Shown here piece after piece: positions 7,835 through 47,123 of a DNA stretch of 64,000 bases (position 1 is the stretch's first letter; every line of letters starts with the position of its first letter). Source of the DNA: Candidatus Eiseniibacteriota bacterium (lineage in GTDB: Bacteria; Orphanbacterota; Orphanbacteria; Orphanbacterales; Orphanbacteraceae). The notes beneath the pieces were generated by a model. The model had not been told where the DNA came from, did not search any database, and worked only from the letters and a program-made list of their open reading frames with translations. The stretch lies in the NCBI GenBank assembly GCA_024276995.1, contig JAJRWB010000050.1, forward strand, positions 80,359-144,358, read 5' to 3'. Position numbers and translations under genes: made by a program.

Positions 7835-9277
7835 ATGAAAGAAACATATCCTTATTATATCGGCGGGAGCGCCGAGCGGCCGAACAGCGACCTCGCCGTG
7901 ATCGACAAGTACACCGGAAAGACGGCGAGTCGCGTCGCCCTCGCCGACGGCGAGGCGATCGACCGCGCCATCGCCATGGCGGTGGACGCCGCCCCGGCCA
8001 TGGCGACCATGGCGGCATGCGACCGCCGGGAAGTGCTGAACCATTGCGTCCGGCGCTTCACCGAACGCTCCGAGGAACTCGCTCTCGCCTTGTGCGTCGA
8101 AGCGGGCAAGCCGATCCGCGACAGCCGCGGCGAGGTGAGCCGCCTGATCGACACGTTCCGGATCGCCGCCGAGGAGGCGGTGCGCATCGGCGGCGAGGTG
8201 ATTCCCCTCGACATCAGTTCGCGGGCGAAAGGCTACACCGGGATGTGGAAGCGCGTGCCGATCGGACCGTGCTCGTTCATTTCACCGTTCAACTTCCCTC
8301 TCAACCTCGCCGCCCACAAGGTGGCGCCCGCCATCGCCGCGGGATGCCCCTTCGTGCTGAAGCCGGCGAGCCTGACACCGGTGGGAGCGATCCTCATCGG
8401 CGAGGTGCTCGCCGAAACCGATCTGCCCGCCGGAGCGTTCTCCATCCTTCCCGTCGGCCGCGACGGCGCGGGGGCGTTCACCACCGACGAGCGACTGAAG
8501 CTCCTTAGCTTCACCGGCTCCCCCGCCGTCGGCTGGGCGCTCAAGGCGAAGGCGGGGAAGAAGAAGGTGGTCCTCGAACTCGGGGGGAACGCGGCGTGCA
8601 TCGTCGACGAGGACGCCGATCTCGACGACGCGGTGGAGCGGATTCTCCACGGCGCTTTCTACCAGTCGGGCCAAAGCTGCATCAGCGTCCAGAGGATCAT
8701 GATTCATGAGGACGTGTACGATCGGTTCAAGGAAAGGATCGTCGCCGGAGCGTCCGCCCTGGTGATGGGCGACCCGAAGGAGGAGAGCACGTTCATCGGA
8801 CCGATGATCTCGGAGAAGGAAGCGGCGCGCCTCGAATCGTGGATCGCCGCGGCGAAGGAGAGGGGCGCATCGGTCCTCTGCGGCGGACGGCGCGAGGGGG
8901 CGATGCTCGAGGCGACGCTCCTCGAAAATGCCCCGGATGATCTCGATGTCTGCGCCAAGGAAGCGTTCGGGCCCGTGGCGGTGCTCTCGTCGTTCTCCGA
9001 TTACGACGACGCTCTCGCCGAGGTGAACCGGAGCGATTTCGGTCTCCAGGCGGGAATCTTCACGCGGGACATCTACAAGGCCCACCAGGCATGGGATACC
9101 CTCGAAGTAGGCGGGGTGGTGATCGGCGACGTCCCGTCGTGGAGGGTCGATCACATGCCGTACGGCGGCGTGAAGGAGAGCGGTCTCGGCAGGGAAGGGA
9201 TCCGCTTCGCCATTGAGGATATGACCGAAATCCGCCTCCTCGTGCTCAGGACACCGCAGCATAAGAAAGGCGCGTAG
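7835..9277 (+). CDS. NAD(P)-dependent aldehyde dehydrogenase
   Basis: 480-aa ALDH-family protein (FTGSPAVGW, ELGGNA, catalytic Cys context GQSCISVQRIMIHE), 14 nt after the TPP enzyme. Confidence 0.85.
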   Translation: MKETYPYYIGGSAERPNSDLAVIDKYTGKTASRVALADGEAIDRAIAMAVDAAPAMATMAACDRREVLNHCVRRFTERSEELALALCVEAGKPIRDSRGEVSRLIDTFRIAAEEAVRIGGEVIPLDISSRAKGYTGMWKRVPIGPCSFISPFNFPLNLAAHKVAPAIAAGCPFVLKPASLTPVGAILIGEVLAETDLPAGAFSILPVGRDGAGAFTTDERLKLLSFTGSPAVGWALKAKAGKKKVVLELGGNAACIVDEDADLDDAVERILHGAFYQSGQSCISVQRIMIHEDVYDRFKERIVAGASALVMGDPKEESTFIGPMISEKEAARLESWIAAAKERGASVLCGGRREGAMLEATLLENAPDDLDVCAKEAFGPVAVLSSFSDYDDALAEVNRSDFGLQAGIFTRDIYKAHQAWDTLEVGGVVIGDVPSWRVDHMPYGGVKESGLGREGIRFAIEDMTEIRLLVLRTPQHKKGA

Positions 9278-10966: not shown

Positions 10967-11971
10967 GTGACCATGGAAACCACCACGGTGGAAAACCGTT
11001 TCACATTGATCGTCCAGGGGCCGGATGGGGGACCCGGGGAATTCGCCGACGCCGTGGCAAAAGGGCTTTCCGGGGAACGGAAATCGATTCCCTGCCGTTA
11101 TCTCTACGACCACCGAGGATCGCTTCTTTTCGAGGATATCTGCGCTCTCGATGAGTACTACCCGACACGCGCCGAAAGGGAGATTCTCGAAACGAGAGCC
11201 GACGAGATCGCATCCCTCCTTCCGGAAAACGCCGAAATCGTCGAGCTGGGAAGCGGGAACGCGAGAAAGACAACGCTCCTGATCGAATCGTTTCTTAGGA
11301 AGAACGGCCGCCTCAGCTATAACCCTATCGACATTTCGCGGAAGATGATCGAAGGGAGTTCGATCAGTCTGCTGAAGCGTTATCCCGACCTGGAGATCCA
11401 GGCGATCGCGGGAGATTACGGCGACGGGCTCGAGTTGATGCGGACATCGGGAGAGGGCGTGAAACTGATCCTATGGCTCGGCTCTTCGGTGGGGAATCTC
11501 GATCGGGAGGAGGCGGCCGAGTTCCTTTCCGACGTGAGAGGCCACATGGGCGCGAACGACCGGCTTCTCATCGGCATCGACCTTCGAAAGTCGAAGAAAG
11601 TGCTCGAAAAAGCTTACGATGATCGCACCGGGATCACGGCGAAGTTCAACATGAATCTCCTCCGTCGGATGAACGACGAACTGGGCGCTTCCTTCGACAT
11701 CAGGAAATTCGCCCACCGGGCGACATACCACGAGGAGGAGGGTCGGGTTGACATGGAACTCGTCTCCGTCGAGGCCCATACGGTGCGCATCGAATCGATC
11801 GATCTCGACGTGGCGTTCCGCGAAGGGGAGACGATTCACACCGAATCGTGCTATAAATACTCCCCCGAAGAGATCGACGCTCTGTTCGCGGCATCGGGTC
11901 TGGAAAACGTAAGGCGTTGGCTCGATTCGCAGCACCGGTTCAGTCTCTCCCTCGCCGCCCCGCTTCCATGA
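10967..11971 (+). CDS. egtD: EgtD-family SAM-dependent histidine N-alpha-methyltransferase-like protein
   Basis: Hallmark EgtD/Methyltransf_33 N-terminal motif YLYDHRGSLLFEDICALDEYYPTRAEREIL and a GSGNARKT SAM-binding loop. No egtB/egtC are visible in the window. Confidence 0.7.
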   Translation: MTMETTTVENRFTLIVQGPDGGPGEFADAVAKGLSGERKSIPCRYLYDHRGSLLFEDICALDEYYPTRAEREILETRADEIASLLPENAEIVELGSGNARKTTLLIESFLRKNGRLSYNPIDISRKMIEGSSISLLKRYPDLEIQAIAGDYGDGLELMRTSGEGVKLILWLGSSVGNLDREEAAEFLSDVRGHMGANDRLLIGIDLRKSKKVLEKAYDDRTGITAKFNMNLLRRMNDELGASFDIRKFAHRATYHEEEGRVDMELVSVEAHTVRIESIDLDVAFREGETIHTESCYKYSPEEIDALFAASGLENVRRWLDSQHRFSLSLAAPLP

Positions 11972-22744: not shown

Positions 22745-24301
22745 ATGCTCCAGCTCTACACGCTGGCGTACACGGCGGTCACCCGCATCGCCCTTCGTCT
22801 TTTCCGCCGCTACGACGCCGTGAGAGCGGTCTACCTCCGCCGCGGGGGCGCCAGAGGCGAGATCCTCCCGCTGGTGAGCGACATCGATTTCGCCCTGATC
22901 AGTGAGAACCTCGACGACGCCGACCGCAACGAACTTCTCGATGGCTACGAGGTCCTCGTGCGGCGAACCACTTTGCTCGACAAGACCCTCGAGATCTACG
23001 ACGAAGAACAGTTCTTCGACGCGTATCGCACGAACGATTACGCCCGCTACCGTTTCGCCGAGGGAAAGAAAACGTGGAAACTCCTCTACGGCCGTGACTA
23101 CGTCGCCGAGCTGCCCGACCTGCCGGACGAAGAGATGGCGGCCGGATACTATACCGAGATCAAGGTGTGGTGGGCGCTCTTCGCGTGGCGCTTCTTCCGG
23201 AGGGGAAAGTACTCCGGCGAACGGGTGACGGAAAACAACGCCTGCTTCAAGACGGTGAGCGAAATTCTCAAGATGGAGACGGCGCTGACGAGAGGGGAGT
23301 GGATCGTTTCGCGCGCCGAGGCGCTCGAACGGGCGGCGGAATTCCTGGATGGAGCCGAGCGCGAGTTCGTCCGGGCGCTGAGCCGGATCGCCGGGCACCG
23401 CTTCCGGCCCAGGCGAAACGGGGTGGTGGACGAGACGCTTTCCTTTCTTCTCGCGAGGCTCGATCGGCTCTACGGAGAACTGCGCTCCCACCCGATCGCC
23501 TCACCCCTGGACGAGCGCTCCCATCTGCTCGACTACGAGAGGAGCGAATCGCCGGGCGCGAAGGAAGAGGATCGCTTCTTCGAAAGGACACTGTCGTTCA
23601 TCGAAAAGAGGTGGGCGGTCCCCGTGCGGGCCGCCCGCGCCGTGCCGGGAGCATACTTCAACATCGACGAGCGTCTCCTCGTCCTCGAAATCGACGGCCA
23701 CAGGCCGCCGCCGGTGAGCGACCTCCTCGCGCTGAACGACCACCTTGCATCGGAGACGGCCCATGTGCGCGGGCGGATCCCGATTTTCCTGCGCATCGGG
23801 AACGCGGCTCTTCGCATCGACCCGGATGACCTGATGCGAAGCTGGCAATCGATCCTCTTTCCACCGTGCAACCCGGACGTTTTCGATCTTCTCGCCCGCG
23901 ACGACTCGCTCGTCGCCGGCCCGCCGTCACGCTCGCCGGCACCGCCGGCCGGTCCGGCGTGGACGCCGCTGGTGCGCCACTTCTTCGATGAAGAGGAGAT
24001 GCTCTTCTACGAACTTCTCCGCAACAAGGCGGTGTATAAATTGAACACGCTCGACTTCTGCCGCATTTTCTGGAAAACAGCGCAGCTCGTCGTGCTGAAC
24101 CGATCGGCTTCGGAGGGAACGATCCGCTACGCCATGACACCCGCGGCCATATCGAGGGAACTCTCCCGCATCGGCGCGGCGATACCGTCGAACCTCCTCG
24201 CCCTAGACCCGATCTATGCGGAGGCGATCTTTGGCGGGGAGAGCGACGTGGGGGAGTTCATTCCGCCGGCGCTCGACTACCTCATGGAGATCGAACGATG
24301 A
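22745..24301 (+). CDS. nucleotidyltransferase-domain protein (Pol-beta-like NTase fold) with large C-terminal domain
   Basis: Internal ATG (MLQLYTLAY..) of track ORF 22619..24301. NTase signature G-x-RG-[ED]-x-x-P-x-SDIDFAL (GGARGEILPLVSDIDFALIS). 519 aa. Confidence 0.6.
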   Translation: MLQLYTLAYTAVTRIALRLFRRYDAVRAVYLRRGGARGEILPLVSDIDFALISENLDDADRNELLDGYEVLVRRTTLLDKTLEIYDEEQFFDAYRTNDYARYRFAEGKKTWKLLYGRDYVAELPDLPDEEMAAGYYTEIKVWWALFAWRFFRRGKYSGERVTENNACFKTVSEILKMETALTRGEWIVSRAEALERAAEFLDGAEREFVRALSRIAGHRFRPRRNGVVDETLSFLLARLDRLYGELRSHPIASPLDERSHLLDYERSESPGAKEEDRFFERTLSFIEKRWAVPVRAARAVPGAYFNIDERLLVLEIDGHRPPPVSDLLALNDHLASETAHVRGRIPIFLRIGNAALRIDPDDLMRSWQSILFPPCNPDVFDLLARDDSLVAGPPSRSPAPPAGPAWTPLVRHFFDEEEMLFYELLRNKAVYKLNTLDFCRIFWKTAQLVVLNRSASEGTIRYAMTPAAISRELSRIGAAIPSNLLALDPIYAEAIFGGESDVGEFIPPALDYLMEIER

Positions 24302-25463
24302 ACGAGGAGAAACGTCTCACCACGTCGGTGGTGGTGGTCACGAAGGACCGCCCCCGCCTGCTCGGCGGACTCCTTCGTTCACTCGTCGCCCAGACGCTTC
24401 CTCCCGACGAAGTGCTGGTGGTGGACAACGGATCGTCGAGAAGCTACAATGAAGTGTTTCGCGAATTCGCGCCGCTTCTCCCGCTCCGAACGGTGGTGGA
24501 GACGAAGCCGGGCATTCCCGCGGCGAGAAACCGCGGCGTCCGGGAAGCGACGGGAGAGATCATCCTGTTCACCGACGATGATTGCGCCGCCGATCCGCGA
24601 TGGGTGGAATGTCTGGTGAAACCGTTCTACAGGAACCCCTATATCGGCGCCGTGGGCGGGGAGATCGATTCTGTCGAGAAGGCGGGCGGTATCGTGGAAG
24701 AGTTCTGCATTTCGGAAACTCTCATGCGAATGGGAAAACGGCCGGACGGCGGGCGATGATCATCGACATCTCGAAAAGCGGCTACCAGCGCGGCTACCTC
24801 CCCGGGAAGGGCATCGGTGTGTTCCACCCCTTCTTCGCCACGGCGAACGCGGCGTTCCGAAAGGAGGCGATCGAAAAGGCGGGCGGCTTCGACCCGAAGT
24901 GCTCCACCGGAGAGGATGTCGATCTTTCGATCCGTGTCGCCCGCGCCGGGTACGAGCTCTGGTTCGAACCGTCGGCACGAATCGTCCATTTCCACCGCTA
25001 TACGCTTAAAGGACTTCTCGTGCAGTGGTATCGGTACGGTCTCGGCCACGCGTATCTCTTCAAGAAGCATTCGCGCCGGAAGAGGCTCGAGTTCTACCGG
25101 TACGACCTCTCACCGAAGAACACCGACCCGTTCGGCATCGCCCGGGTGGCGCGCTTCCCCTTCCCCGTTCACGGTATGATCTTCCTGAGCAGCTTCCACT
25201 TCATGAACGCCGGCGCTCTCGCGGGCGTGGCCGCGTGGCGATTCCTCTCCCCCGCCGCGGCGGCCGTTCCTCTCGCCGTGGCGCTCATCGCCGGATGCTG
25301 GTACTTCTCGATCCGCTTCGACCGGCGCCGCCCGCTCAAATCGACGATCCTCTCCGCCTTGCGGTATGCGGCGGACGGCGCCTACGTACTCGGAGGATTC
25401 GCCGGCGGGATCCGCGAGAGGATGATCTACATCGAGGCGACACGCACCAGACGCCGCCCCTGA
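24298..25463 (+). pseudogene. GT2-family glycosyltransferase, apparent frameshift near 24735-24758
   Basis: ORF 24298..24759 carries the GT-A N-terminus (VVVVTKDRP..VLVVDNGSS..ILFTDDDCAADPRW). ORF 24582..25463, in another frame, carries the GT2 C-terminus (GKGIGVFHPFFATANAAFRKEAIEKAGGFDPKCSTGEDVDLSIRVARAGYEL) plus TM helices. Together they make one normal-length GT2. Confidence 0.5.
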
Positions 25464-25637
25464 CGGTTCGAAGGAAACCGCCATTGAAGGGCGCGTCTCT
25501 CCCGCACGAGCATTGCGTAACTCCTTCCATTATTCGTGTGATTGTGTTATGATCTTATCGCGTTGTCATACGCGCATGGCCGTCGCGCCCCCCCGGCTGT
25601 TCAGCACGATCCATGGAAAACATAAGGAGGATTTCTG

Positions 25638-26693
25638 ATGAAGTTCCGCGCCCTCGTGATCCTCGGCCTGATCGCCGTGACGGCGATTCCCGCCGCAGGA
25701 GCGCAACGGAAAGTGCTCGTCGAGTACTTTTCGAACGATACGTGACCGTACTGCGACGACATCGATCCGGGCATGGAGGCCCGTTTCGGATCGATGTACG
25801 CGGGGCAGGTTGCTCCGATCGAGTGGCACGTCAACTGGCCGAACTCCGCCGACCCGGCCTACCTGTATAATCCTACGGAGGTAGAGGACCGGCGAACTTG
25901 GTACGTCCCGGTGACCTACGTTCCCCAGTTCCGTTTCGACGGGAAGGATATCATCCAGTATAACGGCGTCGACACGACCGCATGGTTCGCCGATTTCGAA
26001 AGAGTGGTCGACAGCCTCCTGCTTCTTTCGAGTCCCATCGCGGTCGATCTCATCCACACGCGGGACGCCGATTCGGTGTATATCACCGTGGTGGTGACCG
26101 TCGAAAACGTACCGAGCGGATCGCTCAACCTCTTCGTAACCGCTTCCGAAGAATGGTATCGCGACTCCCCGTTCGGAAAGCAGTGGTACGTCTTCAGGGA
26201 TATGCTCACCGGCGCCACGGGCGACCCGATTTCGCTCACTACGCCGGGGGAGATCGTATCGATGCAGTACTCTTATCCGATCGATACGCTCTATCATCCC
26301 GCCAGGCTGATCACCACCGCCTGGGTGCAGAAGTCGAGCACCAAGAAGGTGCTCAACTCGGCGAGCGAACTCGTTCCTCTCTACACGGTGGGCGTGCCGG
26401 GGAGCGAGGTGCCGGTGCGGATCGTTCTCGATCAGAACACGCCGAACCCGTTCAACCCGACTACCTCTATCGGCTTCTCCCTCGACAGGGAAAGTCGCGT
26501 GCGGTTATCGGTCTACTCGCAGGCGGGACGGCTCGTCACGAACCTCGTGGACGGCCGGGTCACGCCCGGTTCCCACTCGGCGACGTGGAACGGCACGGAC
26601 CTCACCGGGAAGGCGGTGGGAAGCGGCGTCTACTACTACCGCCTCGACACGGACAAGAACTCTCTCACGGGGAAAATGATCCTCGTTCGCTGA
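25638..26693 (+). CDS. secreted thioredoxin-fold candidate selenoprotein (UxxC motif) with FlgD-Ig/T9SS-type C-terminal sorting domain
   Basis: ATG 25638 with a perfect AAGGAGG RBS 7 nt upstream gives MKFRALVILGLIAVTAIPAAGAQRKVLVEYFSNDT-[TGA 25743-25745]-PYCDDIDPG. This continues in frame into track ORF 25773..26693. The TGA sits where the first Cys of a Trx CxxC motif would be (VLVEYFSNDT-U-PYC), and a cis-Pro region (VTYVPQFRFDGKD) follows. The C-terminus is QNTPNPFNPTTSIGFSL..SGVYYYRLD..KMILVR. Confidence 0.7.
25761..25795 (+). promoter_or_regulatory. SECIS-like stem-loop 15 nt downstream of in-frame UGA
   Basis: AUCGAUCC-GGGC-[AUGGAG]-GCCC-guuuc-GGAUCGAU has an 8-bp lower stem, a 5-nt 3' bulge, a 4-bp upper stem and a 6-nt G-containing apical loop. 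Read directly from the sequence. Confidence 0.5.
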
Positions 26694-26729
26694 CGGCGGA
26701 GCGAACGTCCTGCACTATCGGCCTCCGGA

Positions 26730-26766
26730 GCCCGGGAATCGAACGATCCCGGGCTTTTTTCCTTTT
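26730..26766 (+). terminator. rho-independent terminator after selenoprotein paralog 1
   Basis: GCCCGGG-aatcgaacgat-CCCGGGC followed by TTTTTTCCTTTT. Confidence 0.65.
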
Positions 26767-26792
26767 CAAAACTGTTCACTCCGTTGTATAAT
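26765..26792 (+). promoter_or_regulatory. sigma70-like promoter for paralog 2 (TTCAAA-16 nt-TATAAT)
   Basis: -35 TTCAAA at 26765-26770, a 16-nt spacer, and a perfect -10 TATAAT at 26787-26792, about 70 nt upstream of ATG 26865. Confidence 0.45.
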
Positions 26793-26864
26793 GCATGTTG
26801 TGAATACCTGTGGAATTCACCCGCTCCCGAAAGCCGCAATAGACTCGAACAAAGGAGGAGTACG

Positions 26865-27941
26865 ATGACGAGACGGGCATGGATGGTCCCTGCTCTCCTG
26901 GCACTGCTGGCGCTTCCCGCCACTGCCGCCCAGCGGACGGGTGTTCTCTACGAGGACTTCACCAATGTAGGGTGACCCACGTGCGAAACGATTCGCGACA
27001 GCATGGACGCCATCCTGATGTCGCGTTTCCCGGGGCAGGTTGCTCCGGTACGATACCACGTGAACTGGCCCGACGGGACGGACCCGTATTACGCTTTCAA
27101 CCCGACACAGGTGAACGAGCGGAGAACGTATTACGACTCGACGGTCAACGGCGTGCCGATGATGTTCTTCGAGGGGCAGTATCTCTCCCAGGTGTGGGAC
27201 GGCTCCTTCGCGACCTACACCGACTGGTACAACTGGGTGCGCGCCACCCTCGACAGTCTGTACCTCATCCCAAGCCCCGTGAGGATCAATCTCCAACAGG
27301 TGAGGGACAACGATTCGGTCTATGTCGCCATCGACGTGATTTCCGAAGATACTCTCGGAAGCGCCCCGAACATTTTCGTCTGCTACGAAACGACGTGGGA
27401 CCGGTATCCCGGGAAGGGGAAGTATCGCTACGTCTTTAGGAGCATGGACCCGAACTCCGTCGGGGGAACTCTTCTCGGACTCACCTTACCGGGCGATTCG
27501 GTTCACGTCGAATACACGTATTACATGGATCCCGCGCTGAACAAGAGCCGCATGATGACCACAGTGTGGGTGGAAAGCAACAACGTCGGGGGCGGAGTGC
27601 TCAACTCGATCTCCGAGGAGGTGCCCGCCTACACGGTCGGTGTGCCCGGAGGCGCCGCACCGGTGCGGATCGTGCTCGATCAGAACGCGCCGAACCCGTT
27701 CAATCCGACTACGACGATCGGCTACTCCCTCGACAAGGAGAGCCTCGTGCGCCTTTCGGTCTATTCGCAGGCGGGACGGCTCGTTACGAATCTCGTGAAC
27801 AGCCACATGCCGGCCGGATCGTACTCCGTTCCCTGGAACGGCACCGACCTTTCCGGCAACCCCGTGGGGAGCGGCGTCTACTACTACCGCCTCGACGCGG
27901 AGAAGAGTTCGCTCACCAACAAGATGATCCTCATCCGGTAA
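26865..27941 (+). CDS. secreted thioredoxin-fold candidate selenoprotein paralog 2 (UxxC motif) with the same C-terminal sorting domain
   Basis: Track ORF 26784..26975 ends at TGA 26973-26975, and ORF 27003..27941 continues in the same frame. ATG 26865 with RBS AAAGGAGGA gives MTRRAWMVPALLALLALPATAAQRTGVLYEDFTNVG-[TGA]-PTCETIRDS.. The TGA aligns exactly with the TGA of paralog 1 (G-U-P-T-C vs T-U-P-Y-C). The C-terminal domain is about 85% nt-identical to paralog 1. Confidence 0.7.
26994..27025 (+). promoter_or_regulatory. SECIS-like stem-loop 18 nt downstream of in-frame UGA (paralog 2)
   Basis: CGCGACA-[GCAUGGACGCCAUCCUGA]-UGUCGCG is a 7-bp stem whose loop contains an AUGG/CCAU sub-helix. 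It lies at the same relative position as in paralog 1. Confidence 0.4.
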
Positions 27942-27968
27942 CCGCCCGAGAGGTTCGATCGGCCTGAA

Positions 27969-27998
27969 AGCCCGGGGAGGGACAATCCCCGGGCTTTT
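27969..27998 (+). terminator. rho-independent terminator after paralog 2
   Basis: GCCCGGGGA-gggacaa-TCCCCGGGC followed by TTTT. It is near-identical in architecture to the terminator after paralog 1. Confidence 0.6.
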
Positions 27999-28078
27999 CC
28001 ACGGCCGTGCTGTATAATACGCCTGCCGGCGGGAAGAACCGGCGGTTTGAACCACACCGCTCACCCCGATGGAAGACG

Positions 28079-29425
28079 ATGAAGCTCATTTCATTCAGGG
28101 AGATTTTCCGCTTCTACGTTCCATTGCTGCTCACGTCGCAAATGATGACGCTCTCCGGACCGCTCATCAATGTAGCGGTCGGCCGTGCATCGGACCCGAA
28201 GCTCGATCTCGCCGCCTACTGGATCGGCTTTTCCATCCTCATGTTTATTGAAAGCCCCTGCCTGATCAGCCAGCAGGTGACGGCCACGCTGACCACGGGA
28301 TATCGTTCACTATTCAAAATTTTCTTCACGGCCCTCGCCGTCGGCATCTTGGCCGGGATCACCTCCGTCCTCGTCGCCGTCACACCGCTTGGCGACATCG
28401 TCTTCCTCAGGTTGATCCACACGACCGCCGAGGTGGCCGCTCGGGCGGGGCACGTGCTTCTGCTCCTCTCACCGCTTCCGCTGCTCATCGCCCTGCGCGG
28501 CGTGGGGAACGGGCTTGCCATACGGGAAAGGAAGACGGTGATCATCGCGCGGGCCACTGCGTTTCGCGTGCTCGTCCTCGCGTCGGTGGTCGGCGCGGTG
28601 GTGGCGCTCAACACCGGGTCGGGCGCCCTCGCCGGCGCGGCGGCACTCCTCACCGGGCTCGTGGTGGAGACGACGCTCGTTCTCATCGGCGTCATGCCGT
28701 TCGTCCGCCGATTCCGCGCCGCACGGGACGGCGACAACACCGACCTTTCGATCGCCGATATCTTCCGTGTCGCCATGCCCCTCGCCGTCGCCGCGTATGT
28801 GTGGACCGTCTCGAGACCGATCGTAAACGGCATCCTCGGACGCCTTCCCGATCCGGTGCTCGCCCAGGCGGGATTCGGCGTGGTGGCACCCGTGGTGCTC
28901 CTCACCTGTTCCCCCCTCTGGGCGCTGCAGAACGTGTCGCTCATCCTGGTGAAGACGAAAAGCGACCTCGCTCGGGTGCTCCGTTTCTCCGTGGTGCTGG
29001 CGGTTTTCTTCTCCATCGCCATCTTCATCGTTCTCATCACGCCGCTGCGCGACCTGGTGCTCGAGGGCGCATTCACCCTTTCACCGGAAATGGTCCGGGA
29101 GGTGACGCCCGCCCTCTTCCTGATCGTGCTCGAACCGTATTTTCTCGGGTGGCGCTCCATCGCACAGGGTCTCCTGATGAAAGCGAAGAGGACCGGCATC
29201 ATCGGATCGGTTTCGCTGATCAAGCTGGTGGTGATCCTGGCGGTGGGTATCTGGTTCGCCCTCTTCCGGCCCGGTGTGAACGGCACGGTGCTCGGTACGG
29301 CGCTTTTCATCGGCGGCGATTTGCTCGATGCCCTCTTTTGCGGATGGCAGGCGTCGAGGATCGTCCGGCGCGGGCCTCTCCTCGACGAACCGGCGACCGT
29401 GGGGGGCATGGCAATTCGCCCGTGA
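28079..29425 (+). CDS. polytopic membrane protein, MATE/MOP-superfamily-like transporter
   Basis: Internal ATG MKLISFREIFRFYVPLLLTSQMM.. About 12 predicted TM helices. The family assignment is tentative. Confidence 0.5.
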   Translation: MKLISFREIFRFYVPLLLTSQMMTLSGPLINVAVGRASDPKLDLAAYWIGFSILMFIESPCLISQQVTATLTTGYRSLFKIFFTALAVGILAGITSVLVAVTPLGDIVFLRLIHTTAEVAARAGHVLLLLSPLPLLIALRGVGNGLAIRERKTVIIARATAFRVLVLASVVGAVVALNTGSGALAGAAALLTGLVVETTLVLIGVMPFVRRFRAARDGDNTDLSIADIFRVAMPLAVAAYVWTVSRPIVNGILGRLPDPVLAQAGFGVVAPVVLLTCSPLWALQNVSLILVKTKSDLARVLRFSVVLAVFFSIAIFIVLITPLRDLVLEGAFTLSPEMVREVTPALFLIVLEPYFLGWRSIAQGLLMKAKRTGIIGSVSLIKLVVILAVGIWFALFRPGVNGTVLGTALFIGGDLLDALFCGWQASRIVRRGPLLDEPATVGGMAIRP

Positions 29426-29459
29426 GACACCGCCGAGGCCGTCGCTCTCGGCTCCACTC

Positions 29460-30476
29460 CTACCTCGCCCCCGCCGACCTCCTTCTCCTGCAAATAAGAA
29501 GGTAGAGGAAGAAGGGGCCGCCCAGCAACGCGGTGACGATCCCCACGGGCAGTTCGCTTCCCCCCACCACATTCCTTGCCACCGCGTCGCACGCCACGAG
29601 AAAGGGGCCGCCGAGAAGGAGCGAGCCGGCGATCAACTTGCCGTGACTCTCGCCGAGAAGGAGGCGGAGCACGTGGGGTACCACGAGGCCGACGAAACCG
29701 ATCGGCCCGCACGCCGCCACCGTCACGGCGGTGAGAATCGATGCGACGAAGTAGAGCTGCTTCCTCAGGTAATCTACAGGCACTCCCCTGCTCCTGGCGA
29801 TCTCCTCGCCGCATAGAAGAAGATCGAGTTCCCGCCTGTTGATCAGCAAGATGGCGACGCCGTAGAGAAGCGCGGGAAGGAGCGCCAGGGCGGGAGCGTA
29901 ACCGATGGTCTCCAGGTTTCCCATAAGCCAGCGGACCATGCGGAAGGTTTGGGTGAAGTCGGCGGCGTACTGGGCGAAAAGAAGCAGGGAAGAGAAGAAG
30001 TAGGAGAGCGCCACTCCGGCGAGGAGGAGATGAAGCGTGGAGAGTCCGCTCCCGGAGCGGGCGAGACGGTAGAGGATGATCACCACGAGAAACGCTCCAC
30101 CCAGGGCGAACAGGGGCGTCGCCTCGAAGCTCGACATCATCAGCCCTCCCGAAAGACCGGTGAGCACCGCCACGGAGACGCCGAACGCCGCGCCCGACGA
30201 TACGCCAAGGGTGAACGGCGTGGCGAGGGGATTGCGAAAGAGCGTCTGGAACGACATTCCGGCGAGAGAAAGCGCCGCGCCGGCGAACAGACCGAGGAGA
30301 AGACGGGGAACGCGCAGCGTCCAGAAGATGAACAGCCGCGTCGTGCTGCCGCCGCTGAACAGGTCTCCCGGGCCGATCGACTCGGGGCCGATGAACGGCG
30401 CCGCGAAAAGGACCGCCAGAAAGAAAAGAAAGAAGGCGGTGAGCGTCCTTCCCGGGCGGCGGACCGGCGCCATCAC
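29460..30476 (-). CDS. ABC transporter permease, FecCD/BtuC family (iron-siderophore/cobalamin type)
   Basis: Typical FecCD motifs (LLLGLFAGAALSLAGMSFQTLFRNPLATPFTLGVSSGAAFG.. and C-terminal GPIGFVGLVVPH). The start overlaps the ATPase stop. Confidence 0.85.
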   Translation of the reverse strand: MMAPVRRPGRTLTAFFLFFLAVLFAAPFIGPESIGPGDLFSGGSTTRLFIFWTLRVPRLLLGLFAGAALSLAGMSFQTLFRNPLATPFTLGVSSGAAFGVSVAVLTGLSGGLMMSSFEATPLFALGGAFLVVIILYRLARSGSGLSTLHLLLAGVALSYFFSSLLLFAQYAADFTQTFRMVRWLMGNLETIGYAPALALLPALLYGVAILLINRRELDLLLCGEEIARSRGVPVDYLRKQLYFVASILTAVTVAACGPIGFVGLVVPHVLRLLLGESHGKLIAGSLLLGGPFLVACDAVARNVVGGSELPVGIVTALLGGPFFLYLLICRRRRSAGAR

Positions 30477-31258
30477 CCTTCCTCCCCGCCGATACGCGGA
30501 AGCACCATGGGACGACCGCTGACCGGGTGCGCCGCGAGGAGGAATTCGCTGCCGTACACTTCGCGCAGCACGCCGGCGGTGGCCACTTCACCGGGGACGC
30601 CGTCGCTCACCACCCGCCCTTCACGCAGAGCGACGATCCGGTCGGCGCAGACGCTGGCGCGGTTGATGTCGTGGGTCACCACCAGGAGGGCGATCCCCCA
30701 CCGGCGGCGCGCCCCCTCCATGAGGCGGAAGATCTCGTCCTTCCCCGGGGGATCGAGGAAGGTGGTCGGTTCGTCGAGGAGGAGGATCGAGGCGTCCTGG
30801 GCGATCGCGGCGGCGAGGAGAACCTTCTGCTGCTCTCCGCCGCTCAGTGTGGCGAAGACCCGATCCGCCATCGCGTCGATACCGACCTCCTCCATCGCCG
30901 CGGCGGCGCGACGCCTGTCTTCTTCCGTCTGGCGGCCCCAGGTGGAGAGGCGGGGATAGCGCGCCTGGAGTACGATCTCGCCGGCGGTGAACGGAATGTC
31001 CGGCTCGCGCGCCTGCGGCACGTAAGCGGCGATTCGTGCCGCCGTACGCGCATCGAGATCGCTTCTATCCCTACCGTCGAGAAAGAGGGTCCCCCGCGGC
31101 GGAGGGAGCACGCCCGCGGCATGACGGAGAAGGGTCGACTTCCCGGCGCCGTTCGGGCCGATGAGGGCGACGAACTCACCCTTGCCGACCGACAGGGAGA
31201 CATGGTCCAAAATCAGCGCACCCGCCGGGGCGTACGAGAGGTTTCTCACGTCGAGCAT
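30473..31258 (-). CDS. ABC transporter ATP-binding protein (FepC/BtuD-like)
   Basis: Walker A GPNGAGKST, signature LSGGEQQKV, Walker B ILLLDEPT. Confidence 0.9.
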   Translation of the reverse strand: MLDVRNLSYAPAGALILDHVSLSVGKGEFVALIGPNGAGKSTLLRHAAGVLPPPRGTLFLDGRDRSDLDARTAARIAAYVPQAREPDIPFTAGEIVLQARYPRLSTWGRQTEEDRRRAAAAMEEVGIDAMADRVFATLSGGEQQKVLLAAAIAQDASILLLDEPTTFLDPPGKDEIFRLMEGARRRWGIALLVVTHDINRASVCADRIVALREGRVVSDGVPGEVATAGVLREVYGSEFLLAAHPVSGRPMVLPRIGGEEG

Positions 31259-31262
31259 CGGG

Positions 31263-32156
31263 TCACCTCACCTTTTCGAGGAGAGCGCCGATCTCGTCGA
31301 TCGCCCTTCCCACCCTCGGTCCCGGAACGAGGAGTTCGTCCCCCGTAAGGATGAATACACGTTTCGCCGCCGCCGCGTCCAGCCCGGGAAGGCGGGCCCA
31401 GTCGGCGAGACGCTCCGTCTCCTCCCCCGGTCGGATCGTGCGGCCCGGCTGCAGCTCGATGATCACCTCGGGATTCCGGTGGAGCACTTCCTCCACGCCG
31501 GGCGACGGGTAGCGACCGAGGGCGTCGCCGAAAGCGTTCTTTCCGCCGTTGAGACGGATCACCTCGTCGAGGTAGGTACCCGGACCGGCGACATAGAAGC
31601 CGGTGAGAGATCCGGCGACACGGTCGACCACGATCATCACGGTCCACTCCTTCACCGGCTTCCGGGCACGTGCCCGCTCCACGGCGCCACGGATCTTCCC
31701 GGCGAGCCGGCCGGCGGCCTCTTCCCGCCCGGTGGCGGCGCCGATCGCCTCGATGGCGCCGATCACGTCGTCCACCGTGTCGTTCGGCAGGGTGATCGTC
31801 GCGATCCCTCTCCTTTCGAGCTTCGCCGCCAGCGCCGCGTGGGCGGGGAGCATGATGGCGAGCGTCGGCTCGAGAGAGAACATTCTTTCCACGTCCGGGT
31901 TGAGGAGACCACCGATTCTCGGCTTCCTTGCCGCCTCCTCCGGATAGCGGCAGAAGTCGGTGACGCCGACGACCTCGGCACCGGCGCCGAGGGCGAAGAG
32001 CGTCTCGGTGATATTCGGCGCCAGAGAGAGGATCCTCATCGAACCGGCCGGCGGTGCCGGAGAACGCCCCTCCCCGTCATCGCCGCACGAAAGGAGCGGC
32101 GGAAGCACCACGAGCGCCGCGACGACGGCGGCCGACCGTAACTTGTTAAATATCAA
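31263..32156 (-). CDS. ABC transporter periplasmic substrate-binding lipoprotein (BtuF/FepB class)
   Basis: Binding-protein core (MRILSLAPNITETLFALGAGAEVVGVTDFC) preceded by a lipoprotein signal (AALVVLPPLLSCGDD). TTG start at 32156 is assumed; the track ORF extends to 32438 with an implausibly long leader. Confidence 0.7.
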   Translation of the reverse strand: MIFNKLRSAAVVAALVVLPPLLSCGDDGEGRSPAPPAGSMRILSLAPNITETLFALGAGAEVVGVTDFCRYPEEAARKPRIGGLLNPDVERMFSLEPTLAIMLPAHAALAAKLERRGIATITLPNDTVDDVIGAIEAIGAATGREEAAGRLAGKIRGAVERARARKPVKEWTVMIVVDRVAGSLTGFYVAGPGTYLDEVIRLNGGKNAFGDALGRYPSPGVEEVLHRNPEVIIELQPGRTIRPGEETERLADWARLPGLDAAAAKRVFILTGDELLVPGPRVGRAIDEIGALLEKVR

Positions 32157-32358
32157 CGAATTTAACCCTCGCTCGGCGCCGTGCCGGCGCGCAACAGGTT
32201 GAAATCGATTGCCGCAATACATTACATACTTTAGTATGGAGGATCGCTCCCGTAGCGTCCCGGCTCCGGGAACGATTGTAACGCCCTCCCCGGGGGGGCG
32301 CATCATCGAATCCCCTGCCCGCCCGATCCGGCGATCCGGGCGGGAAGTCTGAGGAACC

Positions 32359-34479
32359 GTGGGAAGAACGAGGACGAAGAACGGTACGGGGACGAAACCG
32401 GCCCTCGGGAAGTTGAGCCGCGAGCAATGCCTCGACATCTATAGGCTCATGTATACGTCGAGGATGATCGACGACACCGAGATCAGGCTGAAGCGGAAGA
32501 ACCAGATCTTCTTCCAGATCAGCAGCGCCGGACACGAGGCGGTCACCGTGATGGCGGGCCTCGCCCTCAGGCCGGGCTACGACTGGTTCCACACGTACTA
32601 CCGCGACCGAGGACTCTGCCTCGCCCTCGGCGTCACCCCCTACGAGATGTTTCTTTCATCGGTGGGTGCCGTCGACGATCCCGCCTCCGGCGGCAGGCAG
32701 ATGCCCTCCCACTGGGGCCACCGGCGGCTTAACATCGTCTCCGTTTCGAGTCCCACGGGCACGCAGGTGCTCCAGGCTGCGGGCATCGCCGAGGCGTGCC
32801 GCTATGGCCACGCCGCGGACGGGGTGGAGGGGGACTTCCCGCGCGACGCCGTGGTGCTCGCCTCTCTCGGCGACGGGACGACGAGCGAGGGAGAATTCTG
32901 GGAGGCGATGAACACGATCTGCAACAACCGCCTCCCGGTGCTCATCCTGGTGGAGGACAACGGATACGCCATTTCCACGCCCGTGAAGGAGCAGACCGCG
33001 GGGGGCGATATTTCCATGCTTTTCCGGAGCTATCCGAATCTTCTCCTTCATAAGGTCGACGGCTGCGACCCGGTGGCATGCCATGATGTCTTCGAGGAGG
33101 TGACCGCCCATATTCGCGCCGGCAGGGGTCCGGCACTGGTGCACGCGTCGGTGATCCGCCCCTACTCCCACTCGATGTCCGACGACCACCGGTCGTACAG
33201 GACGGAAGAGGAGATCGAAGCGGAATTGAAGCGCGACCCGATCCCCTCGTTCGCGCGGCGGATGGTGGACGCGTCCGTCGCCACCGAGGAGGAGCTTTCC
33301 GCCATCCGCGCAGCGGTGCACACCGAAATCGCCGAAGCGGAAGAACGGGCGGTGGCCGCTGTCAAGCCGGCTCCGGAGGATGCCCCCCTCTACCTATATT
33401 CCCCCGACGTCGACCCTTCGTCGGACCGGTTCGATACGGTGCCGGAGGACGGAGGGAGCCCGCTCTCCATGGTGGAGCTGATCAACCGCTGCCTCCGAGA
33501 CGAAATGAGCCGCGACCCTCGGATCGTCCTCTTCGGCCAAGATGTGGCCGACGCGAGCCGGGAAAGGGCGAAGGGAGATGTGAAGGGGAAGGGGGGGGTC
33601 TTCAAGGTCACCGCCGGACTCCAGAGAGAATTCGGCAAGGAGAGGGTCTTCAATTCGCCCCTCGCGGAAGCGAATATCGTCGGACGTGCGATCGGATGGG
33701 CGACGCGGGGCCTCAAACCGGTCGTAGAGATACAGTTTTTCGATTATATATGGCCGGCCTATATGCAGATTCGATGTGAAGCGGCGATGCTCAGATGGCG
33801 TTCACGGAATATGTGGAGCTGTCCGTTGGTGATTCGCGTACCGATCGGAGGATATCTCCAGGGAGGGGCGATCTACCACAGCCAGTCGGGCGCCGTGCTG
33901 ATGACCCACAACCCGGGGCTGCGGGTGGTGATGCCCTCGAATGCCCGAGACGCCAACGGCTTGCTCCGCACGGCGATACGGTGTGACGATCCGGTTGTTT
34001 TCCTGGAGCACAAACACATATACCGCCAGCCGTATGCGAAGTCAGCCTACCCGGGCCCCGACTACATGATCCCCTTCGGAAAAGCGAGAATCCATCGTGA
34101 GGGCGATGACGTGACGGTGGTGACCTATGGCGCCTTGGTAAGGCGGAGCGAGATGGCCGCCAGGAAGCTGGAGAAAGAAGGGATTTCGATCGAAATCATC
34201 GATCTCCGCTCACTCTCCCCCTGGGATACCGATACCGTCGCCCAATCGATCCGGAGGACGGGGAAGGTGATCGTCGCTTACGAGGACTGCCGCAGTTTCG
34301 GCTACGGCGCCGAGATCGCCGCCTGGATCGCGGACAACCTCTTCGAGGATCTTGACGCCCCTGTCAGCAGGGTCGCCGCCCTCGACACGCCGGTCGGCTA
34401 CTTCCCCACCCTCGAAGACGCCATCCTTCCCCAGATCGATGATATCGCCGGAGCGGCTCGAGAACTCCACCGGTTCTGA
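32359..34479 (+). CDS. 2-oxoacid dehydrogenase E1 component, fused alpha and beta subunits (TPP-dependent)
   Basis: The N-half has an E1-alpha TPP motif ([37 protein letters not shown]). The C-half is E1-beta/transketolase-like ([21 protein letters not shown]..). Single 706-aa ORF. Confidence 0.8.
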
Positions 34480-44303: not shown

Positions 44304-45378
44304 TCGGAAGAGAGTGCATTCTCCCGCCGGGCGGAAGGATGCGGATACGGCCGACGCGGCCCGTCACCGATTCGAGGAGCGTCGCGCGTTTCTGAAGCGC
44401 GCCGGCGTTGCCGCCGTCCTCGCGGCAGGATCGACGTGGCCGGCGCTCGCTCCACCCGGATGGATCTTCTCGCTCCGCGATCCGGACGGAAAACGGGGGG
44501 CACCGAAAGAGAAGACCTTCCGCCTCCCCGAGGGGGGGTTCATCGTCGAGAAGCCGGCGACGGCGGCTGATCTGGGCGTGGCGCGCGGAACGGACATTCG
44601 CGCCATGATCCGCTCCGCGGTGGACGGCATCGGCGGTATCGCCCATTACATTCGAAAGGGCGACATCGTCGTGGTGAAGCCGAATGTCGCATTCGAACGG
44701 CCGGCGCTTCTCGGGGCGACGACGAATCCGGAAGTGCTCGCCGAACTGATCCGTCTCGTGAAGGAGGCGGGAGCCTCCGAGGTTCGCGTAGCGGACAATC
44801 CGATCGAGACGCCGGAGAACTGCTTCGCCCGGAGCGGCATCCGTGAGGCGGCCCTCGCGGCGGGCGCGAAGGTCTACCTTCCCTCACCCGCCGACTTTCA
44901 AGTTCTCAACGTGCCGGGCGCCGCGCTCATCGAGAAATGGCCCTTCTTCCGGCGGCCGTTCAAGGACGCCGCCAAGGTGATCGGCGTGGCGCCGGTGAAG
45001 GATCACAACCTGTGCGGCGCCTCGATGACGACGAAGAACTGGTACGGTCTTCTCGGCGGACGACGCAACCAATTCCATCAGAAAATCGATACGATCATCG
45101 CCGACCTGGCGCTCATGCTCCGGCCGACATTCGTTCTTCTCGACGGGACACGCGTCCTCTTCCGGAGCGGACCGACGGGCGGTTCTCTCTCGGACGTGCG
45201 CCCCGGCCGGACGGTTGTCGCCGCCGTGGACTCTCTCGCCGCGGATGCGTTCGGCTGGGAGGATCTTCTCCGCCGCGATCCCGGCCGGCTCCCCCGCTAC
45301 TTCGCCGAAACGGCGAAGCGCGGCCTCGGCAATCCGAATTGGCGGGAGACGGTAATCCGGGAGACGAGAATCGGATGA
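44293..45378 (+). CDS. DUF362-family protein with twin-arginine (Tat) signal
   Basis: Internal [28 protein letters not shown] (Tat motif) and a DUF362-like core ([14 protein letters not shown]..). The upstream part of track ORF 44107..45378 is junk. Confidence 0.65.
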
Positions 45379-47123
45379 GCGACGTGGGGAAAATGGGAAG
45401 GCCCTCCGGCCTCTTCCGGCCGAACCGGGACGGTACGCCGTGGTACGCCCGGGTTCTCCGGATCACCACGACGCGCATCGTCGCCCAAACGTTCTTCTTC
45501 ACGTTGTTCGTTTTTCTCCTTTGGGTCACGTGGTTCAGCCGGATGGGCGGCTATCCCGTTTCCCTCTTTCTCGAAATCGATCCTCTCGTCGGTATCGCCA
45601 CCGCCCTTTCGACGCACACCGTCTACCGTTGGCTTTGGCGGGGCCTATGGGTGCTCGTACCGACGCTCGTCGTCGGCCGCGTCTTCTGTAACTGGGTCTG
45701 CCCCTACGGCACGCTTCACCACTTCTTCGCATGGGTCTTCAATATCCGCGGCAACAGGAACAATATCGACAAGAACCGGTATCGGGACGCGCAGCAGATC
45801 AAGTACATCATCCTGGCGATCTTCCTGGTGCTCGCCCTGTTCGGCTCGCTCCAGATCGGCCTGCTCGACCCGATCTCCCTTCTCGTGAGAAGTATGACCA
45901 CGACCATCGCGCCCGCCGCCGACCTCGCACTCATCTCGCTCCCAGGGGCTCTCGCCGATACGGGACTTCGCGTGCCGAGCCTCACGTTCCTCTCCTCGTC
46001 CCCCGGCGCGGCGGAGCAGCGGGTCTTCGCCGGCGCATGGTTCATCGGACTGACAATCATCGGACTCGTCGGGATGAACCTGGTGATTCCCCGTTTCTTC
46101 TGCCGCGTGCTCTGTCCCCTCGGCGCGCTTCTAGGCGTGCTCTCGCGATTCTCCCTCTGGCGAATCGACCGGGATATCACGAAGTGCACCGATTGCGATC
46201 TATGCCTCAAGCACTGCGAGGGGGCTTCCGATCCGCAGGGCGCCCTTCGCAAGAGCGAGTGTTTCGTCTGCTTCAACTGCATCGACGACTGCCCCGAAGA
46301 CGCCCTCTCGTTCCGCGCTTCGCCGCTCCCCGCGACGGATCGGATCCGCGGTTCGCTCCGAGATGGAAGGGCGACGCTTTTCGGGAAAAAAGTGATCAGC
46401 CGCAACGCCGAGACCGTTGTCCGCCATGTCGACCTCCCCCGGCGGCGCTGGCTCTTCTCCGCCATGGCGGGCGTGCTCGCCTACCCCTTTCTCAGGCTCT
46501 CGCGCGCCGTGAACAAGCGCGGTTACAGTGAAAAGGCGATCCGGCCTCCCGGGACGGTGGAGGAGAGCGAGTTTCTCGAACGGTGCATCAAGTGCGATCA
46601 GTGTATCAACGTCTGCCCCACCAACGTGCTTCAACCCTCGCTGCTCGCCGAGGCGGGCCTCGAAGGCTTCTGGGCACCGGTGATGGACTTCAGCGTCGGC
46701 TTCTGCCAGTACAACTGCGTTCTCTGCTCCGAGGTGTGCCCCACCGGCGCGATACGCACGATCACGACGGACGAGAAACTCGGCAGTGGAAGGTTCGCCG
46801 GAAACGGACCGATCCGCGTGGGAACCGCGTTCTTCAACCGGGGCCGATGCCTTCCCTGGGCGATGGAAACGCCGTGCGTCGTGTGCGAGGAAGTGTGTCC
46901 CGTCAGTCCGAAAGCGATCGAAACGTACCGCGAACAGGCCGTCCGCTCGGACGGCTCGAAGGTGATTCTCAACAAGCCGTATATCCGTCCCGAGCTTTGC
47001 ATCGGCTGCGGGATCTGTGAACATGAGTGCCCGGTGATGGACGACGCCGCCGTTTACGTCACCGTGGCGGGTGAAACACGATCGAAGGAACGATCGCTCC
47101 TTCTCCTGCAAGGGGAAGGGTGA
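45375..47123 (+). CDS. NapH/MauN-type membrane polyferredoxin (two CxxxCP membrane motifs plus multiple 4Fe-4S clusters)
   Basis: ATG overlaps the DUF362 stop (ATGA). Motifs [12 protein letters not shown] and [12 protein letters not shown], then [53 protein letters not shown] and [12 protein letters not shown]. Confidence 0.75.

Follow-up and report, generated by a model that had tools for sequence, protein, structure and literature searches.

The 64,000-nucleotide stretch of DNA analysed here (contig JAJRWB010000050.1 of a Candidatus Eiseniibacteriota bacterium, hereafter the window) carries two tandem genes, gene 1 and gene 2, each with a TGA codon inside an otherwise open reading frame. 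Both genes very probably encode exported redox proteins of the HBP35/Omp28-like kind in which UGA is read as selenocysteine (Sec), expressed as separate units and predicted to reach the cell surface or beyond. Each gene would give rise to a protein of ~350 amino acids (aa) comprising a Sec-pathway signal peptide, a thioredoxin-like domain with a U-P-x-C motif, an immunoglobulin-like (Ig-like) beta-sandwich, and a type IX secretion system (T9SS) type A/FlgD-Ig domain at the C-terminus. The UGA at codon 36 of gene 1 or codon 37 of gene 2 would be recoded by means of an mRNA hairpin that shows its apical loop ~31 nt past the UGA and recruits SelB with Sec-tRNA(Sec), as in other bacterial selenoprotein genes. 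Following export across the inner membrane, the C-terminal domain would deliver the protein to the surface or the outside of the cell, as in HBP35, where it would act as a thiol/selenol-disulfide oxidoreductase cycling through a Se-S bond between U and C. The localization, substrate role, and selenium content given here for the window proteins are those that their sequences predict.

An earlier sequence-only reading of the window had assigned to each paralog a strong ribosome-binding site and ATG, a signal peptide, and a TGA in place of the first cysteine of a CxxC motif within a thioredoxin-fold segment, followed by a frame that stays open. These assignments are borne out by the following features:

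25624-25630, + strand: Shine-Dalgarno sequence AAGGAGG of gene 1, read from the sequence, 7 nt 5′ of the ATG at 25638
25638-26693, + strand: full coding sequence of gene 1 through the UGA, 351 codons plus stop (26691-26693)
25743-25745, + strand: in-frame TGA of gene 1 (U36, motif U-P-Y-C), in the context VLVEYFSNDT-TGA-PYC
26851-26859, + strand: Shine-Dalgarno sequence AAAGGAGGA of gene 2, read from the sequence
26865-27941, + strand: full coding sequence of gene 2 through the UGA, 358 codons plus stop (27939-27941)
26973-26975, + strand: in-frame TGA of gene 2 (U37, motif U-P-T-C), in the context VLYEDFTNVG-TGA-PTC

Both TGAs occupy the position of the first Cys of CxxC, directly after the signal peptide and the first beta-strand, and the only cysteine of the gene 1 product is C39, three residues past the UGA. 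The two read-through products are 51% identical overall; identity is 39-44% over the N-terminal domains and rises to 75% over the last 100 residues. That TGA is a normal stop elsewhere in the window, as the sequence-only reading had argued from the GT4, E1, and kinase genes, which do end in TGA, holds more generally: it ends 28 of the 46 coding-like open reading frames (ORFs) and is the commonest stop there, which indicates that the genetic code is not reassigned.

The selenocysteine assignment draws first on the homologs. A profile of the two post-UGA sequences, run exhaustively against 1.84 billion representative proteins, retrieved 1377 relatives at E ≤ 1e-3 (a word-indexed search with a single sequence matched only the query itself), and further loci were obtained from scans of GTDB genomes and JGI metagenomes. 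The nearest relatives start at a Met aligned with residue 10 after the UGA and are therefore truncated gene calls, while full-length relatives carry C-x-x-C at the exact place of U-x-x-C in the window proteins. In the DNA of two truncated relatives, an upstream ORF of 35 codons stops at TGA (FTNVN-TGA-PGC and FTNDG-TGA-PSC). The region 5′ of the UGA is coding: it encodes the signal peptide and beta1 and aligns with the N-terminal region of the full-length Cys homologs. The window genes have suffered the same treatment in the databases, where gene 1 is entered only as the 306-aa part from 25773 (P0001) and gene 2 only as the 312-aa part from 27003 (P0178). Among the best 150 relatives, about 24 are cut short like this. 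NCBI entries of the truncated products come from Candidatus Eisenbacteria and Latescibacterota and are named “T9SS type A sorting domain-containing protein” or “FlgD immunoglobulin-like domain containing protein.”

The sequence-only reading had called for a check of whether homologs have Cys or Sec at this site, and both are found. TGA stands at the first-Cys codon in at least 20 distinct homologous genes (the two window genes, loci L001-L006, L013, L014, L017-L019, and L021-L024, and second copies in L005, L019, and L023), which derive from independent NCBI metagenome-assembled genomes, JGI metagenomes, and ENA assemblies. Since the same aligned codon is TGA in so many distinct genes, the pattern is not due to chance; neither TAA nor TAG occurs at this codon in any of the loci read. 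TGC or TGT is present instead in seven scanned loci (L007-L011, L015, and L020) and three from look-ups (L025-L027), and C-x-x-C is found at the aligned site in proteins P0008, P0010, P0012, P0019, P0021, P0022, P0153, P0156, and P0158. In a neighbour-joining tree the Cys forms are nested within the Sec forms, with L015 (Cys) as sister to L003 (Sec) and L025-L027 beside the clade of L004. Such nesting is the usual pattern of Sec/Cys exchange.

A second line of evidence is a potential selenocysteine insertion sequence (SECIS) downstream of each UGA:

25759-25797, + strand: SECIS-like hairpin of gene 1, with a 13-bp lower stem, a bulged C, a 4-bp upper stem, and apical loop AGGC 31 nt past the UGA
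26994-27025, + strand: SECIS-like hairpin of gene 2, with a 7-bp lower stem (CGCGACA/UGUCGCG), a short upper stem, and apical loop CGCCA 32 nt past the UGA

The published model of the bacterial SECIS (bSECIS) has an apical loop of 3-9 nt with a G in the first two loop positions, an upper stem of 4-16 bp, a UGA-to-loop spacing of 16-37 nt, and a minimum free energy (MFE) of -7.5 kcal/mol or lower (PMC13188914). When the loops of the MFE folds are compared with these published values, both genes fall within them: gene 1 with loop AGGC, spacing 31, and MFE -32.4, and gene 2 with loop CGCCA, spacing 32, and MFE -22.1, the 3-bp closing run of the latter reaching at least 4 bp via one bulge. The gene 1 hairpin has an MFE of -32.4 to -34.9 kcal/mol and a z-score of -3.7, with 1 of 200 shuffles as good, and a second computation gave z -4.6. 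For gene 2 the MFE is -22 to -24 kcal/mol, and z is -2.8 over nt 13-57.

The helix also shows signs of being conserved as RNA. In an ungapped alignment of 12 Sec forms, the helix at the common position pairs in 76% of cells, vs. 25-48% when the 3′ partners are slid; both partners have changed in seven of its pairs (A-U to G-C at columns 24/43, for instance), and the observed covariation score was reached by none of 500 shuffles. RNAalifold independently recovers the core helix. In the marine subclade of L019, L023, and L024 the hairpin is another one: its loop is CGUGU, at a spacing of 32, and two of its pairs are compensatory. A comparison within one clade gave z-scores against shuffles of -2.0 to -6.4 for 11 Sec forms and +1.1 to -2.7 for 4 Cys forms, the Sec forms being the more stably folded. 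The sequence samples behind these comparisons are small and related. RNAalifold additionally pairs the invariant UGC that encodes the Cys of UxxC (25752-25754) with GCAG (25805-25808) some 50 nt 3′, within the conserved GGGCAGGU (Gly-Gln-Val). No pair of this second helix changes on both sides, and it may thus reflect conserved amino acids only.

By the standard of comparative selenoproteomics, the selenoprotein reading is strongly supported: UGA pairs with Cys across homologs, the UGA itself is conserved, and a covarying, SECIS-like hairpin follows it.

The domains that follow from translation through the UGA are these:

25638-25703, + strand: signal peptide of gene 1, MKFRALVILGLIAVTAIPAAGA|Q, read from the translation, with no lipobox cysteine
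25704-26042, + strand: thioredoxin-like domain of gene 1, with beta1, U-x-x-C, alpha1, and a candidate cis-Pro in VPQF, aligned to the AlphaFold model of P0156
26043-26384, + strand: middle Ig-like beta-sandwich of gene 1, from models; Omp28 and NF045500 matches reach residue 244
26442-26684, + strand: C-terminal sorting domain of gene 1 (T9SS type A/FlgD-Ig type), with TIGR04183 at 29.3 bits, PF13860 at 33.5, and PF18962 at 20.5
27690-27929, + strand: C-terminal sorting domain of gene 2, with TIGR04183 at 27.4 bits, PF13860 at 36.2, and PF18962 at 19.4

Both translations begin with an AxA-type signal peptide, a hydrophobic core followed by AGA|Q in gene 1 and TAA|Q in gene 2. The thioredoxin-like domain of gene 1 gives weak sequence matches to DsbA and thioredoxin. 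Its fold is supported by AlphaFold modelling of P0156, a Cys homolog with 41% identity to gene 1 (predicted local distance difference test score 86.7). In this model beta1 spans residues 26-32, and the CxxC residues 36 and 39 lie at the start of a helix at 37-55; the thioredoxin-like fold is completed by beta2, by beta3 with an invariant Pro in front of it, and by a closing helix, and is followed by a beta-sandwich at 142-256 and a C-terminal sandwich at 273-360. A Foldseek search of the PDB with this model returned HBP35 (5y1a) as the best match over about the whole length (E 1e-13, template modelling scores 0.51/0.58). The family profile also finds HBP35 by sequence (weakly, E 7e-6), together with thioredoxins and FlgD, and it matches the solved C-terminal domains of T9SS cargo (8glk_D, 8glj_D, and the RgpB C-terminal domain). 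On this evidence the window proteins are taken to be Sec-containing proteins of HBP35 architecture.

The FlgD-Ig/T9SS-type C-terminal domain proposed from the sequence is likewise recovered, as both proteins pass TIGR04183 (cut-off 23 bits) and FlgD_ig (PF13860, cut-off 27 bits). TIGR04183 is present in 77 of 102 relatives. A further window protein of 1630 aa (48495-53387, - strand) combines fibronectin type III repeats with a FlgD_ig/Por_Secre_tail C-terminal domain as in the pair, which indicates that the organism uses this sorting domain on other large proteins too.

Several known families share parts of this architecture. The nearest selenoprotein family is GOS_C, reported by Zhang and Gladyshev in 2008 with 74 Sec sequences and 312 Cys homologs (PMC2398784), listed in PMC13188914, and curated as NCBIfam NF045500, “Omp28-related selenoprotein.” A pairwise alignment of gene 1 with a GOS_C read from the supplement (22% identity, E 6e-7) sets U36 against the U of the read (VLVEYFSNDT-U-PYC vs. 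VMVEDFTGLN-U-PYC). The window proteins resemble GOS_C in a homologous N-terminal region, a hydrophobic leader at the N-terminus, and Sec at the same aligned site within the motif V-x-V-E-x-F-[ST]-x-x-x-U-P-Y-C. They differ in a T9SS-type C-terminal domain, which is no part of the GOS_C description, in their occurrence as tandem pairs, and in their origin from Eisenbacteria-like lineages, whereas GOS_C stems from surface-ocean plankton. Against NF045500 (cut-off 200 bits) the pair scores 41.5 and 32.4 bits (E 1e-10 and 6e-8, matching residues 19-244), compared with 336.7 bits for the GOS_C read, and all of 102 close relatives stay well short of the cut-off (best E 2e-24). Since the scores lie so far below 200 bits in the pair and in its relatives, the pair is placed by sequence as a distant branch of the superfamily that contains GOS_C, outside the GOS_C family itself.

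The closest Cys-type counterpart is HBP35 of Porphyromonas gingivalis, a T9SS cargo protein (PMC3120885) that reduces insulin more actively than E. coli thioredoxin, an activity lost in the C48S/C51S mutant, and that binds hemin through its C-terminal part (PMC2907840). HBP35 and the window proteins have in common a signal peptide and, after it, a thioredoxin-like domain whose CxxC (or UxxC) is close to the N-terminus, an Ig-like domain, and a C-terminal domain of T9SS type. Sequence identity is only ~15%, HBP35 has Cys in place of Sec, and hemin binding and anionic lipopolysaccharide (A-LPS) attachment have been demonstrated in HBP35. The Omp28 family shows detectable homology across the thioredoxin-like and beta-sandwich region, but the window proteins have AxA signal peptides without a lipobox Cys and a sorting domain in place of the lipid anchor. 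Gene 1 scores 29.6 bits with Pfam Omp28 (PF11551, gathering score 34.9) and gene 2 gives no match. Both proteins also fall short of NF033782 (Omp28 family outer membrane lipoprotein, cut-off 150 bits) with 16.2 and 13.6 bits, and neither has a Cys at the signal-peptide cleavage site; the same family is matched by 63 of the 102 relatives.

DsbA, a weak match in which CPHC aligns with U-P-x-C, shares the signal peptide, the thioredoxin fold, a Pro after the first residue of the motif, and a candidate cis-Pro loop. Unlike DsbA, the window proteins lie outside Pfam DsbA and Thioredoxin, have two extra beta-sandwich domains, and are predicted to exit the periplasm. With T9SS type A cargo (TIGR04183) they share a score above the family cut-off and a profile match to solved cargo C-terminal domains; what sets them apart is that no paper was found tying T9SS-type cargo to selenocysteine.

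The sequence-only reading had been aware of no selenoprotein family that is secreted and sorted through a C-terminal T9SS-type domain. This stands insofar as the literature search found no paper linking selenoproteins with Omp28, T9SS cargo, or Eisenbacteria (T9SS and selenoproteins meet in incidental mentions only), nor any on Eisenbacteria and type IX secretion. The novelty was overstated, however, since GOS_C, predicted in 2008 to be a selenoprotein, is a distant homolog whose Sec lies at the same site (PMC2398784; NF045500), and HBP35 provides the Cys-type architecture. Known already are selenoproteins that are exported and have UxxC in a thioredoxin fold, the GOS_C family, and the architecture of HBP35; the novelty is in the combination, in which tandem genes of Eisenbacteria-like bacteria encode HBP35-like proteins that have both Sec and a T9SS-type sorting domain and that are mis-annotated across the databases.

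A number of observations weigh against exported, surface-delivered selenoproteins. Searches of the window and of all fetched loci gave no selA, selB, selD, or tRNA-Sec, the search for tRNA-Sec covering the window and 24 loci. The gene 2 hairpin taken alone is unexceptional against shuffles over 73 nt (z -0.5), and hairpin conservation could partly stem from the conserved peptide I-K-D-S-M-D-x-I-F that the same nucleotides encode. No Rfam family matches the window at gathering thresholds, and a permissive scan of 25600-27100 gave matches at chance level only. A strict scan for perfect-stem SECIS elements did not separate Sec from Cys forms (p = 0.11); it was set aside as too crude, and loops from MFE folds were used in its place. 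The cut-offs of NF045500 and Pfam Omp28 are reached by neither window protein. The structural match to HBP35 rests on the Cys homolog P0156, and the post-UGA fragment of the window protein, which is without beta1, models poorly in the thioredoxin region and retrieves generic beta-sandwich matches but not HBP35. As to sorting, both proteins are below the cut-off of Por_Secre_tail (PF18962, 27 bits), no T9SS component was recognised in the window, and the closest named relatives are Candidatus Eisenbacteria, while to our knowledge T9SS is experimentally established only in Bacteroidota.

Some of these points would suit a UGA that is an ordinary stop, leaving a 35-aa peptide and a separate protein of ~310 aa begun at an internal ATG, or a pair of pseudogenes. 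Gene callers have treated the loci in this way (P0001 and P0178), TGA is the usual stop in this genome, and Sec machinery was not seen in the window. Yet 20 or more genes are arranged alike, always with TGA, and in the 35 codons before it one finds homology to the signal peptide and beta1 of Cys homologs. The downstream ORF would bear a secretion domain with no signal peptide of its own, and the fragment without beta1 models poorly in the thioredoxin region. No Shine-Dalgarno sequence lies 5′ of the internal ATGs at 25773 and 27003. Of 12 close relatives, 3 have GTC or GTA at the codon from which the databases read the truncated ORF; there is therefore no separate start at that codon, and the downstream part cannot be an independent gene. 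Both paralogs have frames that are intact over ~1 kb, and an ordinary stop or a pair of pseudogenes is on the whole highly improbable.

Equally improbable is read-through with another residue, whether Cys inserted by a tRNA-Sec-like tRNA or Trp or Gly inserted by a suppressor or code variant. Such a reading could draw on the same lack of visible Sec machinery in the window and fetched loci and on the many homologs in which Cys functions at this site, but the role of TGA as a stop in most window ORFs argues against reassignment, and the aligned homolog residue is Cys, never Trp or Gly. A covarying structure at SECIS distance is moreover a requirement of SelB-dependent recoding, and no motif is more frequent among selenoproteins than UxxC in a thioredoxin fold (PMC2398784). 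The apparently frameshifted GT2 glycosyltransferase gene nearby and an assembly of unknown quality might raise the suspicion that TGA is a sequencing or assembly error for TGC or TGT, but such an error would have to recur, at one and the same codon, in both paralogs here and in 18 or more other genes of unrelated assemblies, and this explanation is effectively refuted.

Another alternative keeps the selenocysteine but drops type IX sorting. The FlgD-Ig-like domain might be a structural or anchoring module, with the protein in the periplasm or brought to the outer membrane by another route. The failure of Por_Secre_tail where FlgD_ig passes is in keeping with this, as are the Bacteroidota-only experimental record of T9SS, the nearest named relatives (Candidatus Eisenbacteria and Latescibacterota), the window without a recognised T9SS component, and the periplasmic TlpA-like redoxin that neighbours the genes in a sister clade. 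Nonetheless, both proteins pass the curated TIGR04183 cut-off, the family profile matches the cargo domains 8glk_D, 8glj_D, and RgpB CTD, the best whole-length structural match is a T9SS cargo protein, and a second large window protein ends in the same domain. The C-terminal domain is in addition the most conserved part between the paralogs (75% vs. ~40%). Selenoproteins that dispense with type IX sorting are thus unlikely, though a serious alternative to delivery by a T9SS-type domain.

The signals around the two genes suggest that they are separate transcription units:

26730-26760, + strand: terminator-like hairpin 3′ of gene 1, GCCCGGGA, 9-nt loop, TCCCGGGC, TTTTTT, read from the sequence
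26763-26792, + strand: promoter-like site of gene 2, TTTTCA, 18 nt, TATAAT, with the consensus matched at 10/12 positions
27970-27998, + strand: terminator-like hairpin 3′ of gene 2, GCCCGGGGA, 7-nt loop, TCCCCGGGC, TTTT, read from the sequence

The hairpin at 26730-26760 was missed by the automated terminator scan because its loop is longer than 8 nt. A polysaccharide-synthesis cluster lies 5′ of the pair; 3′ are an ANKH-like membrane protein and then a convergent FecCD/ABC/binding-protein importer. This neighbourhood is shared by one close relative only (L002), and no operon-based function is drawn from it for that reason. Where L002 (1-4042) is compared with the window (26865-31258), the ANKH-like, FecCD, and ABC genes are 67-79% identical and the selenoprotein about 38-40%, which indicates that the selenoprotein evolves unusually fast. 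Fast evolution is common in surface proteins.

Tandem pairs with Sec also occur in the clade of L004, L005, L014, and L016 and in the marine clade of L019 and L023, and a Cys pair (both TGC) occurs in L008, which puts tandem pairs in at least three lineages. Both copies carry TGA in every pair listed except that of L008:

L004: 10040 and 11323
L005: 9707 and 11021
L014: 5040 and 6318
L016: 5040 and 6354
L019: 2190 and 5040
L023: 1889 and 4730
L008: 7317 and 10040

The tree suggests separate duplications, each predating species splits. A TlpA-like redoxin (AhpC-TSA/Thioredoxin_8, with a WCKPC motif) comes directly 3′ of the pair or single gene in the L004 clade and in its Cys sisters:

L004: 12437-13145
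L014: 7332-8142
L016: 7469-8180
L017: 1524-2334
L013: 1377-2085
L006: 2040-2748
L026: 1961-2754
L027: 2261-3092
L025: 1787-2293
L005: 12136-12444
L007: 3352-3759

A DUF6029 protein comes after the redoxin in L004, L006, L013, L014, L016, L017, L026, and L027, in Sec and Cys forms alike, and the more distant Cys form L007 has the redoxin only. The TlpA-like redoxin is not present in the window. The sister-clade neighbourhood fits an envelope redox relay and would support an envelope redox function of the family.

Other genes of the window were observed in passing. The importer convergent to the pair, with the ANKH-like gene between them, consists of a FecCD permease, an ATP-binding cassette (ABC) ATPase, and Peripla_BP_2 (29460-32438, - strand) and is of the iron-complex, haem, or B12 type; HBP35 binds hemin, yet no evidence was found linking this importer functionally to the pair. 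The GT2 glycosyltransferase gene (24298-25463, + strand) is split over overlapping frames, with the N-terminal part at 24298-24759, the C-terminal part at 24582-25463, and the change of frame between about 24660 and 24830, and the split may mean an error in sequencing, a pseudogene, or a genuine frameshift. An outer-envelope electron-transfer-like run (39758-47123, + strand) comprises DUF3373, a multihaem cytochrome (Cytochrome_cB/C7), DUF6599, and a multi-4Fe-4S protein. An EgtD-type histidine-specific methyltransferase (10967-11971, + strand; Methyltransf_33, E 3e-107) has DUF547 and a PAS histidine kinase as neighbours, and no EgtB-like partner was found among the window ORFs scanned. An aldehyde dehydrogenase (7835-9277, + strand) is 74-81% identical to proteins of Chloroflexota, Myxococcota, Planctomycetes, Gammaproteobacteria, and others, which points to exceptional conservation or to wide transfer and makes it uninformative for taxonomic placement.

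The idea of a selenoprotein that is exported and has UxxC in a thioredoxin fold is not new, and the surprise to a specialist would be moderate. The present genes add a large HBP35-like group with a sorting domain to a selenoprotein superfamily that had been known just by the name “hypothetical protein GOS_C.” They also show that dozens of database entries are N-terminally truncated, lacking the signal peptide and the catalytic residue and named for the sorting domain only. A wider proposal, offered tentatively and judged to fall a little short of even, is that these proteins form a widespread, undescribed selenoprotein clade displayed on the surface or released via the T9SS-type C-terminal domain. 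If this were true, they would be the first selenoproteins predicted to act outside the outer membrane, their tandem pairs would have been kept in at least three separate lineages, and a sister clade would have coupled them to a TlpA-like redoxin and DUF6029. It would also place Sec use in Eisenbacteria-like phyla, where no report of selenocysteine use was found. For these uncultured lineages the pair implies selenocysteine decoding. It also suggests that redox reactions at the outer membrane or beyond it depend on selenium, out of reach of any cytoplasmic reductant that could repair an over-oxidised cysteine. A location without such repair would make these proteins a concrete, testable case for the replacement of Cys by Sec.

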